Positions 5,220-45,471 are shown, counted from the first letter of the stretch. The stretch: DNA of 64,000 nucleotides from Escherichia coli (GCA_902500055.1 GCA_902500055.1_4131.1); one strand, 5' to 3'. A program made the numbers and translations. The notes: a model not told the origin generated them from the sequence alone.

Positions 5220-5278
5220 AAGTTCCTTACTCTAATTTGTTTTTAACAAAATAATTATATATAACATACTAAATTATG

Positions 5279-8484: not shown

Positions 8485-9639
8485 ATGTCAAGGTCAATTG
8501 CTGCGGCTGGACGCTATAAGTTTGGTGAATGTGGTTATGTTGTTGATGGTGCAATCCTCAATGATGGAACTAGACTAAAAAATATTAGAATCTATCGCCA
8601 AAGAAGCCATAGATTATATGATTTAGTTGATCCAAGAACTAATATAATATATCGTAAAGTACAAATAACAACTAAAGATAATAAAGGTTATCTATTAAAT
8701 TACAATAAAACTAATGACCAACTATTAAGTGAAATTAATAAAAATTGTTTCTTTGTTCGTGGATATTCTGAAGAGCCACAAGAAACTGATACTGGATTTG
8801 TATATAAATTTATGCTACATAAAACAATTTTAGGTAGTTCACAAACCTTGTATCATATGTATACACCTGAATGTGGTATTATAGATCGTGATATAGATAA
8901 TATTCTCATTTCACCAGTATTTGTTGGTAATGACTCAATTAGTGGTAAATTATTCAACACTGGTTCAGAAATTGATACTAACGGTATGGTAATAACAATC
9001 GTATTACCAGACGGGACAGAATACTTTACTACCCAATTTGTTAATGATGCATTTACAATTCCAGTTGATGTTATCACACAATCAGGGAAAGGTACTGCTA
9101 CACTCACTTCTCCATATTATAACACTAAAGTGGTGGAATTTGATGTTCTTGAAAGTGGTGAGGATATTGATTTTGTTACATCAGTTCTTCTATCCCAATT
9201 TGAACCTGTTTCGGAAGGTGTATTTTCTGCGGTTGTTCCATTTGATGTTCATGATCGTGGACAGTACTTAGCACTTCAAGCATACAGTGGTGACTTATAT
9301 CAAGTTGGTGTAGATCTTTCTGTAGACGCAGAAGGTAATATTACTGTGTATCAAACTGACAATTTACCTGTTTCTTTGAGTATAATCGGAAAAACACTGC
9401 ATACTACTCCTTTCCATAAAGAATATACTTTAAGTGAGTGGGTTCTCGGTGAAGACTCTATGTACTCTATCTCAGTTCCAGTAACTGAACATGGTAAAGC
9501 ACTACCACAAGTTCAATTATATTCTTCAGACAATCATGTAGTTCATAGTGAAATACAAGTGGATGAAGATGATAATGTAATTCTTAAAGTAGTAGAACCG
9601 CTTGACTGCTCAGTCGTAATAGTTGGTTACAACGCATAA
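8485..9639 (+). CDS. hypothetical protein
   Basis: 384 aa plus-strand ORF with good SD, ends at a convergent terminator. Confidence 0.6.
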   Translation: MSRSIAAAGRYKFGECGYVVDGAILNDGTRLKNIRIYRQRSHRLYDLVDPRTNIIYRKVQITTKDNKGYLLNYNKTNDQLLSEINKNCFFVRGYSEEPQETDTGFVYKFMLHKTILGSSQTLYHMYTPECGIIDRDIDNILISPVFVGNDSISGKLFNTGSEIDTNGMVITIVLPDGTEYFTTQFVNDAFTIPVDVITQSGKGTATLTSPYYNTKVVEFDVLESGEDIDFVTSVLLSQFEPVSEGVFSAVVPFDVHDRGQYLALQAYSGDLYQVGVDLSVDAEGNITVYQTDNLPVSLSIIGKTLHTTPFHKEYTLSEWVLGEDSMYSISVPVTEHGKALPQVQLYSSDNHVVHSEIQVDEDDNVILKVVEPLDCSVVIVGYNA

Positions 9640-9640
9640 T

Positions 9641-9672
9641 AAAAAAGCCACTACATTGTAGTGGCTTTAATT
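9641..9672. terminator. bidirectional rho-independent terminator
   Basis: agccactac-att-gtagtggct hairpin between convergent genes, flanked by A- and T-runs. Confidence 0.7.
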
Positions 9673-9680
9673 TTATCTAA

Positions 9681-10493
9681 TTATTTGAAATTGTCACGTA
9701 GAACTTCTTCAAGTGTTTTATCTGGATTGCTAATGGCTACATTATAAATCAATTCTTTAAATGCAGTTAGTGCCTGCTCAGTTGCTTCTGGACCAAAGTT
9801 CTCACTAATGCTTTTAAACATACTTTGTGCACGTTCTGATTTGATACAACTAGTTACAAACTTGTCAATTTCATTACGAAGCTGCTTAGTTGTCATGTCA
9901 CCAATGAGCATCTCACTAATTTCTTTTGGTTCATCTGCACTTGTTCGGACATTCGTAAAACCAAACACATCATCACCTGAGCCAAAGCTACGTTTTTCTT
10001 TTTTAGTTTCTTTTACTGGTTCTTCTTCAACTTCTTGTTCGTATTCTTTAGTAAAGAGATGAGATAGTACATCATCAAGATTTTTAACCATACCGTCAAT
10101 ACGAGATTCAGCATTCTTGGATACATGTTTGAATGCTTGCTCTAGTGCTTTTTCTTGAATCTGGTCACGAACATTATTAACTACATTACGAAGTTTTTCA
10201 TTACAGTTGTCTAAAATTTCTAATACTTCACCAGTTTTGATTTTTTCCAAAAGTACATCTAAATCAGATTTTACATGTTGTTTTTGACTTACTTCACCAT
10301 TAAGAATTGAATTCAATTCTTTAGCACCTTCAACTGCTTCTTCATGTGTTTTAAATTCAACTGGTACGTCAACACCATCCAGTACAATATTAAGCACTTT
10401 ACCATCAACGTAGGCGTAGGAGTAAGATGCTTTTTTGAAAGAAATAGTTTTGAAGAAAATGTTGCTCATATTGATATACTCCTTAATGCCCAC
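9681..10493 (-). CDS. hypothetical protein
   Basis: 270 aa acidic/coiled-coil-like ORF. Confidence 0.6.
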   Translation of the reverse strand: MGIKEYINMSNIFFKTISFKKASYSYAYVDGKVLNIVLDGVDVPVEFKTHEEAVEGAKELNSILNGEVSQKQHVKSDLDVLLEKIKTGEVLEILDNCNEKLRNVVNNVRDQIQEKALEQAFKHVSKNAESRIDGMVKNLDDVLSHLFTKEYEQEVEEEPVKETKKEKRSFGSGDDVFGFTNVRTSADEPKEISEMLIGDMTTKQLRNEIDKFVTSCIKSERAQSMFKSISENFGPEATEQALTAFKELIYNVAISNPDKTLEEVLRDNFK

Positions 10494-39169: not shown

Positions 39170-39770
39170 ATACCTTTTTCAAATTCATAATTTCAAGAAT
39201 GCTGTATTCTTTATCACCAATCAAATCTTCAGTGAATGCAGTGGGGTCGGCATCGCTATACAACTTACCATTGATGATAACACAACCATTACTAAGATAC
39301 AATGCACTCATGATCTGTTGTCCTTCTTTCACATTTTGTGCTAGACCTGTATTTGTTACTACAAATCCATTTGTTGCTAATGATGATGTTAGTTCTGACC
39401 ATTCAACTGATATTAAGTCGCGATAGTCCTTAGATACTTTTATATTCACAATACAAGCAACTCGTTTAATAGGTGGAGTGCTAATCGTGTACATTTGTGG
39501 TTGTTGGTAATTAGAGTTGTATGTTTGTGGTGTTTTAACAGCAGTTCCTGAATTTTGAGTTGATTTGGTAATTACTGGTTCTACACTGGGGACTGTTGTT
39601 CTTAGTGATATAATACGTCCAGTTTCATCCAATTTAAGGACTAAACGATGAGTTTCATCCTCAGAGTAATAGGGAAACAAGCCACCGGAATTCATATTTT
39701 GAAGCATTTTAATTAATTCATAAGTATTTTTTAAAAACATAGTACACCCCATAGAAAAGGGGGAGTACAA
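39153..39770 (-). CDS. hypothetical protein
   Basis: 205 aa ORF. Confidence 0.55.
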   Translation of the reverse strand: MYSPFSMGCTMFLKNTYELIKMLQNMNSGGLFPYYSEDETHRLVLKLDETGRIISLRTTVPSVEPVITKSTQNSGTAVKTPQTYNSNYQQPQMYTISTPPIKRVACIVNIKVSKDYRDLISVEWSELTSSLATNGFVVTNTGLAQNVKEGQQIMSALYLSNGCVIINGKLYSDADPTAFTEDLIGDKEYSILEIMNLKKVYENHD

Positions 39771-39788
39771 AGTACTCCCAACATTTAA

Positions 39789-40343
39789 TTATAGTTTAAT
39801 TGATTCTTGAATACCAGTATCCATTGCTTTCTTGGTACGTGTATCAGATACTACTGTACAAAGGTGTTCAATATTTTCACTTGGAAACGTATTCGAATCA
39901 AGAATTTTGGAATTCCAGAAGCCTTTGCGGAACTTAGCATAATCAGTACACTGGTCAATTTTCATTTTCTGAAGATTGTTGAACTTTGTACGTCCTGTTT
40001 CAATTGTCACCATCAATTCCTGATAAATTTTAGGATCAAGATTTGGAACCTGTTGTTGAATCTGTGACATTACAAACTTCTGGTCAACACCTTCACGCCC
40101 TTTAAAGTATGATTCAATCGTTTCTTTCAACGCATCTTTATACTTATCGGCTACTTGAACCTTATCTTGAATAGTAAGAGTATAATTGCTAAGTTGACTT
40201 TCTGATGCATCATAATACTTTTTAATGTTTCCTTCAAACTCAACTGCACGATCATGTGCACCAACATACATACTAATAGAACCAAACACCATTAGTACGA
40301 TAACTACCAAAATACCAATTAACGCAAGGAGTTTACCATTCAT
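39789..40343 (-). CDS. LemA-like membrane protein (tentative)
   Basis: N-terminal TM plus C-terminal IETGRTKFNNLQKMKIDQCTDYAKFRKGFWNS resembling the LemA C-terminal region. Confidence 0.4.
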   Translation of the reverse strand: MNGKLLALIGILVVIVLMVFGSISMYVGAHDRAVEFEGNIKKYYDASESQLSNYTLTIQDKVQVADKYKDALKETIESYFKGREGVDQKFVMSQIQQQVPNLDPKIYQELMVTIETGRTKFNNLQKMKIDQCTDYAKFRKGFWNSKILDSNTFPSENIEHLCTVVSDTRTKKAMDTGIQESIKL

Positions 40344-41434
40344 AAATCGTTATCCCTCATATAAAGGCCAATGAAAATAGACAGAATCAACAACACAATG
40401 GAAGCACCGATAAGAACATCTTTTCTAGGTTCCATTTTTACTGACAAGTACTCAAACTCTTTATTAGAGAGTCTCTCAAAATGTTTGTCAATATTATGTA
40501 CTTCTTTAACTAGTAAGTCAAGAGTTAATTTTTCATTTAATGCATCAATACGCATCTTTGCATGTAACTCTTCATTCTTCATTCCTTGTGCAAATGATGT
40601 ACTGTAAAATTTGACAACGTTACCATCATTGTCAATACCAAAGAACATAATAACATCATTCTTCTTACCACCACGCCACGATGCAAGGGTAGCATCAACA
40701 AAATCCACATCTTTGTAATCATAAACTAGTACTTGGATGTTTACCTGCTTTCGTGCACCCATCGTTTTTAGCTCATTACGAAGGTATTCATCGTAACCAT
40801 CAACGTTGTAATTTGTAGTGTTAATTACGTGATGTGTTTTGTAATAATCAACTACACTTGGGTATTCTGGAATAGTACTAAGATACTTTTCATCATACAT
40901 GTTGTGTAGTTCTTCAGGACTAAACAATGAGTTCTTATCAGCAAATAGATAGTTGATATATGAACTCTCTGCGGCGGCATAGTCACCAATCATAACTTGC
41001 TGCCAACGTGGTGGTGTCATTGTACCTTGACGGTTCACACGTTCAATCTCAAACTCACCTACTGTACTTTTCACATACCAATCAACTTCATATGAGTAAT
41101 CAAAAACCTTATATGATTCACACTCACGATGTGATTTACCTTTACTATCATATCGCGTATGGCACTTCTCATGCCATGTATAGTGCTTACATGAACTAGA
41201 TTGTGTGCAATATTCTTTGTGGCTGTATTTTGAAGTTACTTGACCATTCAGAATCTCAACATCATAAAGCTGGCTATAGTTGATTGCGTATGAAATACCA
41301 AGAACAAGAGCCGCACCAACCAGACAACAACCAATATGAATCAATAGTTCTTTAGTACTGATATGCTTATCGTACATGTATTTCATAACGAATACAACGA
41401 TAAGAGCAGGTATTAACAGAATAATGAAATTCAT
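40340..41434 (-). CDS. hypothetical membrane protein with N- and C-terminal TM segments
   Basis: TM helices at both ends flanking a Cys/His-rich extracytoplasmic domain. Confidence 0.55.
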   Translation of the reverse strand: MNFIILLIPALIVVFVMKYMYDKHISTKELLIHIGCCLVGAALVLGISYAINYSQLYDVEILNGQVTSKYSHKEYCTQSSSCKHYTWHEKCHTRYDSKGKSHRECESYKVFDYSYEVDWYVKSTVGEFEIERVNRQGTMTPPRWQQVMIGDYAAAESSYINYLFADKNSLFSPEELHNMYDEKYLSTIPEYPSVVDYYKTHHVINTTNYNVDGYDEYLRNELKTMGARKQVNIQVLVYDYKDVDFVDATLASWRGGKKNDVIMFFGIDNDGNVVKFYSTSFAQGMKNEELHAKMRIDALNEKLTLDLLVKEVHNIDKHFERLSNKEFEYLSVKMEPRKDVLIGASIVLLILSIFIGLYMRDNDL

Positions 41435-41437
41435 GTA

Positions 41438-42127
41438 TTAATCCATTTTAAGCTTGTTTAGACAGAATGAAATCTGGATTGCTTCACGTGCTGCATCAAA
41501 CAGTGGGTGATGTAACTCCAACCCATTAATCCCACACGTATTTGCATATGTGATAAATTTATCCAACTGTACCGAAACGATTTCATCCATTTCAATACGA
41601 GCTTCTTCATTCAATAAACGTTTCAATGTGCGTGCATTTTCAGGTGCATCATACTTCCACAACTCACCAGCGTTCATTAGTTTTAAATGGTTTGCTTGTA
41701 AAATACTACAATCGAAGTTACATCCGTTGCCCCAGACTGAATGAGGAACTTCTTCACCATAATCATTGTAACGTAATTCTTTCCAGAAATCAACAATACT
41801 ACTGTATGCAAAAAATCGTCGTGATTGACCATTCGGTCCATACAGTTCAGGTGCTTTGAGTTTCATAGTACTGGCAACTTCAGAATATGCATTAGGGTAT
41901 TCTTTCTGACATGTATTCATCCAAAAATCCATTGCACCTGCGTCTGATTTTAAACCAGCAGCAACTTGATCCTGGTATGGTAATTTAATATATAAGAACT
42001 GACGAATGTCATTTTCAGGTTTACTTGGAACTACTACTGCTGCGTAATTTGGGATAATAATATCATAACCGGAAAGTTCAGGTGTTCCAAGAGCTTCAAT
42101 ATCAACACTAATATGACGACGTTTCAT
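41438..42127 (-). CDS. dexA: DEDD-family 3'-5' exonuclease (DexA-like)
   Basis: Exo I-like ISVDIEALGT and Exo III-like HHPLFDAAREA; size matches T4 DexA. Confidence 0.6.
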   Translation of the reverse strand: MKRRHISVDIEALGTPELSGYDIIIPNYAAVVVPSKPENDIRQFLYIKLPYQDQVAAGLKSDAGAMDFWMNTCQKEYPNAYSEVASTMKLKAPELYGPNGQSRRFFAYSSIVDFWKELRYNDYGEEVPHSVWGNGCNFDCSILQANHLKLMNAGELWKYDAPENARTLKRLLNEEARIEMDEIVSVQLDKFITYANTCGINGLELHHPLFDAAREAIQISFCLNKLKMD

Positions 42128-42149: not shown

Positions 42150-42193
42150 TTAAAAAGAGTGCGTTTTCAATAAGATTATATTAAAAACGCACT
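42150..42193 (-). terminator. hairpin terminator candidate
   Basis: 11-bp stem gagtgcgtttt/aaaacgcactc with a long loop, followed by TTTTT on the minus strand. Confidence 0.35.
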
Positions 42194-42206
42194 CATATGT
42201 CAACTA

Positions 42207-44652: not shown

Positions 44653-45471
44653 TTAGTGCATCCTTTTGTTACTTTTATCCTTGTACCATACAAATGTCTT
44701 GACAGGTGGATATTTTTCATTCTTTGGTGGTTCAGGCATGTCGTATACAGTTGCATTTCTAAACTTAAGAATGTATGTGTCCATTAAACGGATTATACAA
44801 TAGTTTAAACATTTTTGTGCTCTTTCTTTCCAAAAATGTTTATATGGTTCTGGACAACCAAGATAATCAAGTTTATACATACTCATAGCAACTTGCATAA
44901 ATCTTTGGGCCGAGAATTTTCGCTTATCAATCTTACTTGCTCTGTGTTGGTCACATGTCCAACTTGATACACCAGGCAAGTGACAAAACAAATCAAAACT
45001 AACCATACTATCAAAGTATTTGTTATGACCATGTAACTCACCATAAAATACAGCTTCTGACACAGTATCATATAATGAGAAATTTGAATGTATATGTTCA
45101 TTATCAAAAATACTTTTTAAATCTTTATAAGTTTCTGGAACAGGTGGCTCAGGTAATACTTCACCGAATACTTCAACACACCATATCTTCCATAAACCTT
45201 TTGTAAATTTATTTTCTAATTCTCTATCACTATCAATATAAAAAGTTTTTTCATTTATGAAAACTTTTCTAGCCATGTATGCTTTAAAAATTGCATCTGG
45301 ATCAATGTCTTCACGATTTACATCATCCCAGCCTTTACCAATTCTTGAAATTTCAAATCTACGCATATACATACGACATGCTAAATCTTTAGTAAGGCTG
45401 CGACGATACTTTTCATCCTGATGTAATTTGGTTGTTTCGTGAAGAGATTTAAGCATATTTAAAATTCTCAT
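44653..45471 (-). CDS. hypothetical protein
   Basis: 272 aa ORF. Confidence 0.6.
   Translation of the reverse strand: MRILNMLKSLHETTKLHQDEKYRRSLTKDLACRMYMRRFEISRIGKGWDDVNREDIDPDAIFKAYMARKVFINEKTFYIDSDRELENKFTKGLWKIWCVEVFGEVLPEPPVPETYKDLKSIFDNEHIHSNFSLYDTVSEAVFYGELHGHNKYFDSMVSFDLFCHLPGVSSWTCDQHRASKIDKRKFSAQRFMQVAMSMYKLDYLGCPEPYKHFWKERAQKCLNYCIIRLMDTYILKFRNATVYDMPEPPKNEKYPPVKTFVWYKDKSNKRMH

Follow-up and report, generated by a model that had tools for sequence, protein, structure and literature searches.

A predicted LemA-like and TPM-fold membrane protein pair conserved in large virulent phages of Gram-negative bacteria

The 64,000 bp stretch of Escherichia coli DNA analysed here (GCA_902500055.1; hereafter the window) carries two adjacent genes encoding membrane proteins of 364 and 184 amino acids. 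We consider it very probable that this pair is a phage-adapted, highly diverged version of the bacterial LemA–TPM membrane module, in which the small protein is LemA-like and the large protein has a TPM fold. Several hundred large virulent phages that infect Gram-negative hosts were found to keep the two genes together as a unit. The pair is a variant of a known module and not a new kind of system, and the mechanism put forward for it below is a proposal made by analogy. We give the whole explanation, identity and proposed role taken together, a probability of roughly 0.55.

The phage surrounding the pair is a Rak2-like jumbo coliphage of the genus Asteriusvirus. A 6.9 kb region around the pair showed 99.8% identity to Escherichia phage SP27 and 98–99.7% identity to phAPEC6, PBECO4 and 121Q. 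An original prediction, made from the sequence before this analysis, had described open reading frames (ORFs) of 184 and 364 amino acids at this locus, and both were present exactly as described. Its order, with the 184 amino acid protein followed by the 364 amino acid protein, is correct on a plus strand reading but not for transcription, as both genes are on the minus strand and the large gene is transcribed first. The 3′ end of the large gene overlaps the start of the small gene by 4 nt (ATGA). Both ORFs are real genes and not chance ORFs because the small protein matched phrog_1383 (1e-66; labelled 'virion structural protein') and the large protein matched phrog_2087 (2.5e-135; function unknown by label), because the small family comprised 799 cluster representatives, and because homologues of the small and large proteins were present in 471 and 486 phage records respectively.

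Scans of both proteins against Pfam, NCBIfam and PADLOC revealed no LemA, TPM or defence match, and searches of the PDB sequences with single sequences and narrow profiles found neither LemA nor TPM. The link to LemA emerged only with a 142-sequence family profile (A3 alignment). The exhaustive profile search that gave the 799 cluster representatives showed nearly all of them to be 180–200 amino acids long and to align over their full length. A search of the PDB sequences with the 142-sequence profile revealed the LemA structure 2ETD at E = 1.6e-7, the runner-up being at 0.21. When members of the family were taken individually, 31 of the 142 touched the LemA family PF04011 (best member E = 2.9e-6), compared to 12 for the next family. 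Alignment of the small family with the 2ETD sequence using hhalign scored 94.6% and placed residues 34–155 onto positions 2–141 of the 143-residue segment. Against a profile of 39 true LemA proteins the score was 97.9% (E = 3.7e-13), and it was 96.3% against LemA with the transmembrane (TM) helices removed; reversed and column-shuffled controls reached ≤1.4%. The reciprocal test agreed, with the true-LemA hidden Markov model (HMM) matching 36 of the 142 phage-family members at E ≤ 1e-4. Bridging sequences, namely some of the small partners encoded in genome assemblies, matched both the phage-family and the true-LemA HMMs.

The architecture of the small protein also matched that of LemA. It consists of one N-terminal TM helix followed by an otherwise helical chain, about 190 amino acids in total for the family, true LemA proteins being 186–195 amino acids. 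An E..NP-like motif (E97, P100; ENYP in LemA) was retained in the phage family. The C-terminal extension (residues 156–184) was kept across the phage family, and the predicted local distance difference test (pLDDT) score of its model was <50 across residues 166–184. Taken at the level of sequence profiles, the small protein is best described as a distant homologue of LemA that matches it in size and architecture. The LemA-like identity suggested by the original prediction was thus borne out by sensitive profile methods (the 2ETD match and the 97.9% score to the LemA profile). That prediction was to be abandoned if profile searches gave no LemA or TPM similarity; a routine Pfam search indeed gives none, but the family-level profiles do show LemA.

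The large protein had been described as having TM helices at both ends and a Cys/His-rich middle. Both ends were indeed hydrophobic, but the N-terminal end is a hairpin, making three segments in total. A soluble region of approximately 280 amino acids lies between the TM hairpin and the C-terminal TM helix. The Cys/His-rich stretch was also present, but it is at the start of this soluble region (residues 72–110) and not in the middle; it contains C76, C82, C91 and C105 together with H72, H84, H88, H92 and H102. C76, C82 and C91 were conserved in 89–97% of the large family and D58 and G64 were invariant. The structure model of the large protein was confident (pLDDT 91.3), and the alpha-beta-alpha sandwich fold of TPM domains was found in it. 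A Pfam scan of the protein itself gave no TPM (PF04536) match even at E ≤ 1; among 70 large-family members, TPM was the commonest Pfam match (8/70), these matches being weak (best E = 0.013). TPM sequences are highly divergent while their fold is conserved (PMC13456599). Alignment of the large family with the single TPM sequences of YgcG and a Thermotoga TPM protein using hhalign scored a weak 5.6–6%. These two comparisons and a third, independent one with 26 bacterial TPM proteins all gave the same register (residues about 211–268), which set the near-invariant W253-x2-GKKND opposite the W-x-x-G...N-G motif of TPM. From the model, the large protein is therefore predicted to carry a TPM-fold domain followed by a TM anchor. 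For the Cys-rich beta domain that precedes it (residues about 55–198), neither Pfam nor the PDB sequences gave a match. Longer variants of the large protein (roughly 430–520 amino acids), encoded on contigs of the candidate phyla radiation and on other metagenome-assembled genome (MAG) contigs (L191–L198), matched only residues about 153–364; in these, an apparently different N-terminal module is joined to the same TPM-plus-TM half.

Analysis of charged residues suggested how the pair may be oriented in the membrane. The loop connecting TM1 and TM2 was rich in lysine and arginine (K/R) across the large family, with K/R counts of 3.1 in this loop, 2.35 in the C-terminal tail and 0.03 at the N-terminus. 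This bias would put the loop and the C-terminal tail in the cytoplasm and therefore the Cys-rich and TPM domains in the periplasm. For the small protein there was a weak prediction of the N-terminus inside and the C-terminal domain outside, in keeping with a published prediction that places the C-terminal domain of LemA outside the cytoplasm (PMC3905215). Insertion in the inner membrane is expected for both proteins; their soluble domains would face the periplasm, and the two would form a complex there. Cysteine parity was also considered as a sign of a periplasmic ectodomain and was uninformative, as the ectodomain cysteine counts were often odd (4, 5 or 7).

The large and small genes stay together, in large-then-small order, in nearly every phage that has either. 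In a survey of 80 IMG/VR viral loci, the small homologue was downstream of the large gene and on the same strand in 79, the exception being a truncated contig. The same gene order was found in ICP1, CBA120 and three distant contigs. In the GenBank phage records the host distributions of the two proteins were nearly identical. The phages with the pair include Ackermannviridae, T5-like vibriophages, ICP1, Aeh1-like phages and Erwinia, Serratia and Rak2-like jumbo phages, as well as phages of Acinetobacter, Sinorhizobium and Delftia; Lak megaphages encode a distant homologue of the small protein. A search of 185,579 bacterial species genomes revealed the phage-type large protein in only 26 loci, mostly on MAG contigs, and an Achromobacter locus among them had phage-like neighbours (a YqaJ-like recombinase, RecA and thymidine kinase). 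A cellular origin of the phage-type large-protein clade was unsupported by these results. On one MAG contig (L178) the pair is in the bacterial order, the small gene (356–910) being before the large gene (913–1995). On another, from a Kaiserbacteria bin (L174), a genuine LemA gene (9414–9974; E = 1.3e-59) is 2.4 kb downstream of a phage-type pair.

The original prediction had stated that LemA proteins pair with a membrane-anchored partner, and bacterial loci confirmed this. The Thermotoga gene encoding 2ETD is immediately followed by a TPM gene, as is a lemA of Neobacillus. Of 80 metagenomic lemA loci, 10 had a TPM gene immediately upstream; 64 had enough downstream sequence for one to be seen, and in at least 23 of these a TPM gene directly followed lemA. 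A lemA-type gene adjoining a gene for a TPM-domain membrane protein is also what was found in the phages, with the 4 nt overlap in the window and adjacency in 79 of the 80 viral loci. Of the bacterial TPM proteins examined, 18 of 26 had an N-terminal hydrophobic segment, a TPM domain, a TM helix and a glycine-rich tail. In E. coli K-12 (L010, 7558–8584), the gene for the host TPM protein YgcG is preceded by that for the 46 amino acid YqcG, a 'cell envelope stress response protein', and lacks an adjacent lemA.

By analogy with these cellular proteins, the pair may form an early inner-membrane complex whose periplasmic domains would serve as a chaperone or scaffold for membrane-linked complexes or for envelope homeostasis. 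Large virulent phages have a long infection cycle, and such a complex could keep the envelope of the host in working order throughout it. A role in the maintenance of the envelope or of membrane complexes is favoured because of four lines of published work. For envelope-stress systems, it has been proposed that TPM domains help to assemble membrane complexes in a chaperone-like way (PMC11237479; Lipocone preprint), and they are accessory subunits of photosystem II, a nicotinic receptor and a mycobacterial supercomplex (PMC13456599). lemA and a TPM gene were induced in an envelope-perturbed Flavobacterium mutant (PMC13236525), and MamQ, a LemA-family protein, is required for magnetosome membrane formation (PMC3905215). 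We hold the chaperone or scaffold role tentatively, at well below the confidence given to the identity of the two proteins.

Several observations weigh against this explanation, in its identification of the proteins or in the role that it gives them. A Pfam scan of the small protein gave no LemA (PF04011) match even at E ≤ 1, and neither protein of the pair reached any curated family threshold. The motif QRRxDLIPN, which was invariant in the LemA alignment, is replaced in the phage family. The AlphaFold model of the small protein was of moderate confidence (pLDDT 71), and fold searches with it did not single out 2ETD. Alignment of the large family with the 26 bacterial TPM proteins using hhalign was marginal, scoring 52.9% (E = 1.4e-4) with controls at ≤2.8%. 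The phage gene order is opposite to the usual bacterial order, and five bacterial-assembly loci (L176, L184, L186, L187 and L190) had a large homologue with no detectable small partner in their flanks. The odd cysteine counts do not discriminate between disulfides and metal binding in the ectodomain, and both the topology and the formation of a complex are what we infer and not what was observed. The proposed role is an analogy, because the function of the cellular LemA–TPM pair is itself not established; literature searches for a function of LemA or TPM in phages found nothing, and for none of the phage homologues were data on expression or phenotype found.

The original prediction had named superinfection exclusion as a possible function, and the early-type promoter, membrane location and predicted periplasmic domains would also suit it. 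Here an early inner-membrane pair would act like T4 Imm and Sp, stopping secondary phages at genome injection or at a step in the periplasm. The pair is moreover widespread among virulent phages that compete for Gram-negative hosts. Neither protein, however, had a PHROG, Pfam or PADLOC match (PADLOC at E ≤ 1) to a known exclusion or defence protein, and the pair is retained in phages whose injection machineries differ greatly (myoviruses, T5-like siphoviruses and jumbo phages). Exclusion genes are usually lineage-specific and fast-evolving, whereas this pair descends from a cellular housekeeping-type module. We regard exclusion as improbable.

A periplasmic enzyme is about equally improbable. 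Here the TPM domain would have phosphatase or nucleotidase activity, its substrate being an envelope precursor or a nucleotide in the periplasm, with the LemA-like protein as its anchor or regulator. The TPM domain of the phage protein has invariant polar residues (N259, D260, K257, K258 and N232), and the strong conservation of the G-K-K-N-D motif and other polar positions is what one would sooner expect at a ligand or catalytic site than in a pure scaffold. Phosphatase or ATPase/ADPase activity has been reported for TLP18.3, Rv2345 and BA41, but AscF is without metal or nucleotide binding, and the metal-binding residues vary between TPM structures so that none could be mapped onto the phage protein (PMC13456599). 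A catalytic role of TPM domains is also disputed (PMC11237479; Lipocone preprint).

The original prediction had suggested control of lysis timing, which would make the small protein an antiholin or lysis-inhibition sensor like T4 RI and the large protein its membrane partner. The topology of the small protein does resemble that of RI-type antiholins, but its homology is to LemA and to no antiholin family. No recognised holin, endolysin or spanin gene was beside the pair in the regions examined in the window, ICP1, CBA120 and three metagenomic contigs, and this role is highly unlikely.

That the small protein is a structural component of the virion, as the phrog_1383 label and many RefSeq records have it (e.g. 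CBA120 orf254, PBECO4 and GAP32; 'putative structural protein' in some Erwinia phage records, which may reflect a proteomic detection), is barely credible given that gp143c and gp144c are absent from the 62 proteins of the virion proteome of phAPEC6 (PMC7247149), which is 99.7% identical across the region, that the Ag3 proteomics paper identified only ORFs 206, 213, 195, 185, 006 and 192, and that the protein has a TM helix, homology to LemA and a place in a block of sigma70-type promoters that, as far as the inspected regions show, is far from any recognised morphogenesis gene. Widely propagated as it is, the label 'virion structural protein' is unsupported by either proteome. The phAPEC6 counterparts (gp149c and gp150c) of two other minus strand genes in the window, at 45,468–46,148 bp and 46,148–46,711 bp, were detected in virions by mass spectrometry (PMC7247149) despite lying in this early-looking, promoter-rich block.

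In the public records the large protein is labelled 'hypothetical' and the small protein mostly 'hypothetical' or 'virion structural protein', with a few GenBank records already labelling it 'LemA'. A search of the literature and of records found none that names the partner as TPM-fold or describes a conserved phage pair.

Table 1. Coordinates of the pair, of its predicted domains and of the associated transcription unit in the window
Feature	Position (bp)	Strand	Remarks
Large gene, 364 amino acid membrane protein with predicted TPM-fold domain	40340–41434	minus	phrog_2087; upstream member of the pair
Predicted N-terminal TM hairpin of the large protein, residues about 1–54	41273–41434	minus	Hydropathy segments 1–22 and 27–54; model helices 4–20 and 27–54
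Cys-rich beta domain of the large protein, residues about 55–198	40841–41272	minus	Model beta strands 57–130; family unrecognised
Predicted TPM-fold domain of the large protein, residues about 199–320	40475–40840	minus	Includes the near-invariant W253-x2-G-K-K-N-D260 motif
Predicted C-terminal TM anchor of the large protein, residues about 336–361, then short tail	40352–40429	minus	Hydropathy and model
Small gene, 184 amino acid LemA-like membrane protein	39789–40343	minus	phrog_1383; downstream member of the pair
Predicted N-terminal TM helix of the small protein, residues about 5–27	40263–40331	minus	Hydropathy and model
LemA-homologous helical domain of the small protein, residues about 34–155	39879–40244	minus	hhalign 94.6% to the 2ETD sequence; 97.9% profile-profile
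C-terminal extension of the small protein, residues 156–184	39792–39878	minus	Beyond the LemA alignment; low model confidence
Sigma70-type promoter, TTGACA-17-TATAAT, perfect (12/12)	42175–42203	minus	Upstream of the exonuclease, large and small genes; function from sequence only
Rv2179c-like 3′-5′ exonuclease gene	41438–42127	minus	Pfam PF16473, 1.1e-8; first gene of the apparent transcription unit
Terminator-like hairpin, 8 bp stem with 5 GC pairs, then T-rich tail	39761–39779	minus	Just past the small-gene stop codon

Analysis of the DNA around the pair revealed an exonuclease gene that ends 3 nt before the ATG of the large gene. As a consensus sigma70 promoter precedes this compact unit and a terminator-like hairpin closes it, we infer that host RNA polymerase transcribes its three genes (exonuclease, large and small) early. 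There were 21 near-consensus sigma70 promoters (≤1 mismatch to TTGACA-17-TATAAT) in the 64 kb window, all on the coding strand, compared to 2.4 expected by chance; examples on the minus strand are at 5254–5282 bp, 6617–6645 bp, 25,681–25,709 bp, 28,088–28,116 bp, 42,175–42,203 bp and 60,354–60,382 bp. The whole 64 kb thus has the look of a region dense in promoters and read by the RNA polymerase of the host. A sigma70-like match with one mismatch (TTGACA-17-TCTAAT; 40,463–40,491 bp, minus) is inside the large gene, approximately 120 nt upstream of the small-gene ATG, and is probably a chance or weak site because of the mismatch at the critical second base of its −10 box.

Upstream of this unit there is a homologue of TelA (toxic anion resistance; 42,207–43,343 bp, minus; Pfam 2e-37) and then a gene encoding a 375 amino acid protein (phrog_13312; 43,429–44,556 bp, minus), each with its own 11/12 sigma70 promoter. 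A terminator-like hairpin that follows the TelA gene (42,157–42,194 bp, minus) runs into the perfect promoter of the unit that follows and contains its −10 box, and this arrangement (42,157–42,203 bp) could couple termination to re-initiation. Among the 80 viral loci, TelA and the exonuclease flanked the pair only in 14 Rak2-like loci, and the phrog_13312 gene was likewise conserved next to the pair only in Rak2-like phages; in ICP1, CBA120 and the three distant contigs, the other phages looked at, there was no TelA near the pair. TelA and the exonuclease were therefore rejected as parts of the module, as they co-occur with the pair only in Rak2-like phages, and the exonuclease is a lineage-specific neighbour outside the conserved pair. 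The public labels of this Rv2179c-like exonuclease were inconsistent (metallopeptidase, exonuclease, 3′-5′ exoribonuclease and DUF5051).

Bacteria very commonly encode LemA and TPM proteins, often from adjacent genes, while the molecular role of the pair is not established. The present reading of the phage pair as a diverged LemA–TPM module corrects annotation and defines a phage-specific architecture (reversed gene order, TM hairpin and Cys-rich domain). It also suggests that phage genetics could serve to work out the function of the LemA–TPM module. A stronger view, which we think rather unlikely, is that large virulent phages of Gram-negative bacteria near-universally use the pair as a dedicated 'envelope takeover' complex with an activity of its own. 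This activity would be, for example, the stabilising or re-wiring of inner-membrane complexes or the excluding of competitors, with the Cys-rich domain giving a phage-specific target. If this were true, tractable phages (ICP1, CBA120 and T5-like vibriophages) would give the first clean genetic handle on the cellular LemA–TPM module, because the pair is present in them.

T4 Imm, Sp and RI are small early membrane proteins of large virulent phages. The phage pair is likened to them by early-type expression signals, an inner-membrane location and periplasm-facing domains, all of which are predicted for the pair. No sequence or family relationship between the pair and these proteins was detected, and the resemblance is one of lifestyle only.

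Comparison with bacterial LemA (PF04011; T. maritima TM0961, PDB 2ETD; L. monocytogenes LemA; MamQ of magnetotactic bacteria) showed shared features. These proteins are about 185–195 amino acids long, with an N-terminal TM helix and a helical domain of approximately 150 amino acids, as is the phage small protein. They share with it profile-profile homology across the whole domain, the E-x-N-P-like motif (phage E97..P100; LemA E-N-Y-P) and a gene that adjoins a TPM-domain gene. The phage small protein differs from them in falling below all curated thresholds, in having lost QRRxDLIPN, in missing an inter-helix segment of approximately 16 residues and in the addition of approximately 30 residues at the C-terminus. 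Its gene is also downstream of the partner gene and not upstream, and is encoded by virulent phages.

The TPM proteins encoded next to bacterial lemA (E. coli YgcG type; PF04536; TLP18.3 3PW9, BA41 5ANP, 7TBR and Psb32 8C7I) have in common with the phage large protein the order of TPM domain then TM helix. At its N-terminus the large protein carries a TM hairpin instead of the single hydrophobic segment of the bacterial proteins, and it adds a Cys-rich beta domain of approximately 145 amino acids before the TPM domain. Its tail is short and not glycine-rich, and its sequence is too diverged for Pfam. In the PspA/TPM operons of the B. subtilis ydjFGHL type (PMC11237479), a membrane-associated TPM protein works with other membrane proteins, as is proposed here for the phage pair; the partner YdjG has zinc-ribbon-like Cys-rich elements, and chaperone-like assembly of membrane complexes has been proposed. 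In contrast to those operons, the phage pair has no linked gene for PspA or a band-7 protein, and the partner of its TPM-fold protein is LemA-like.

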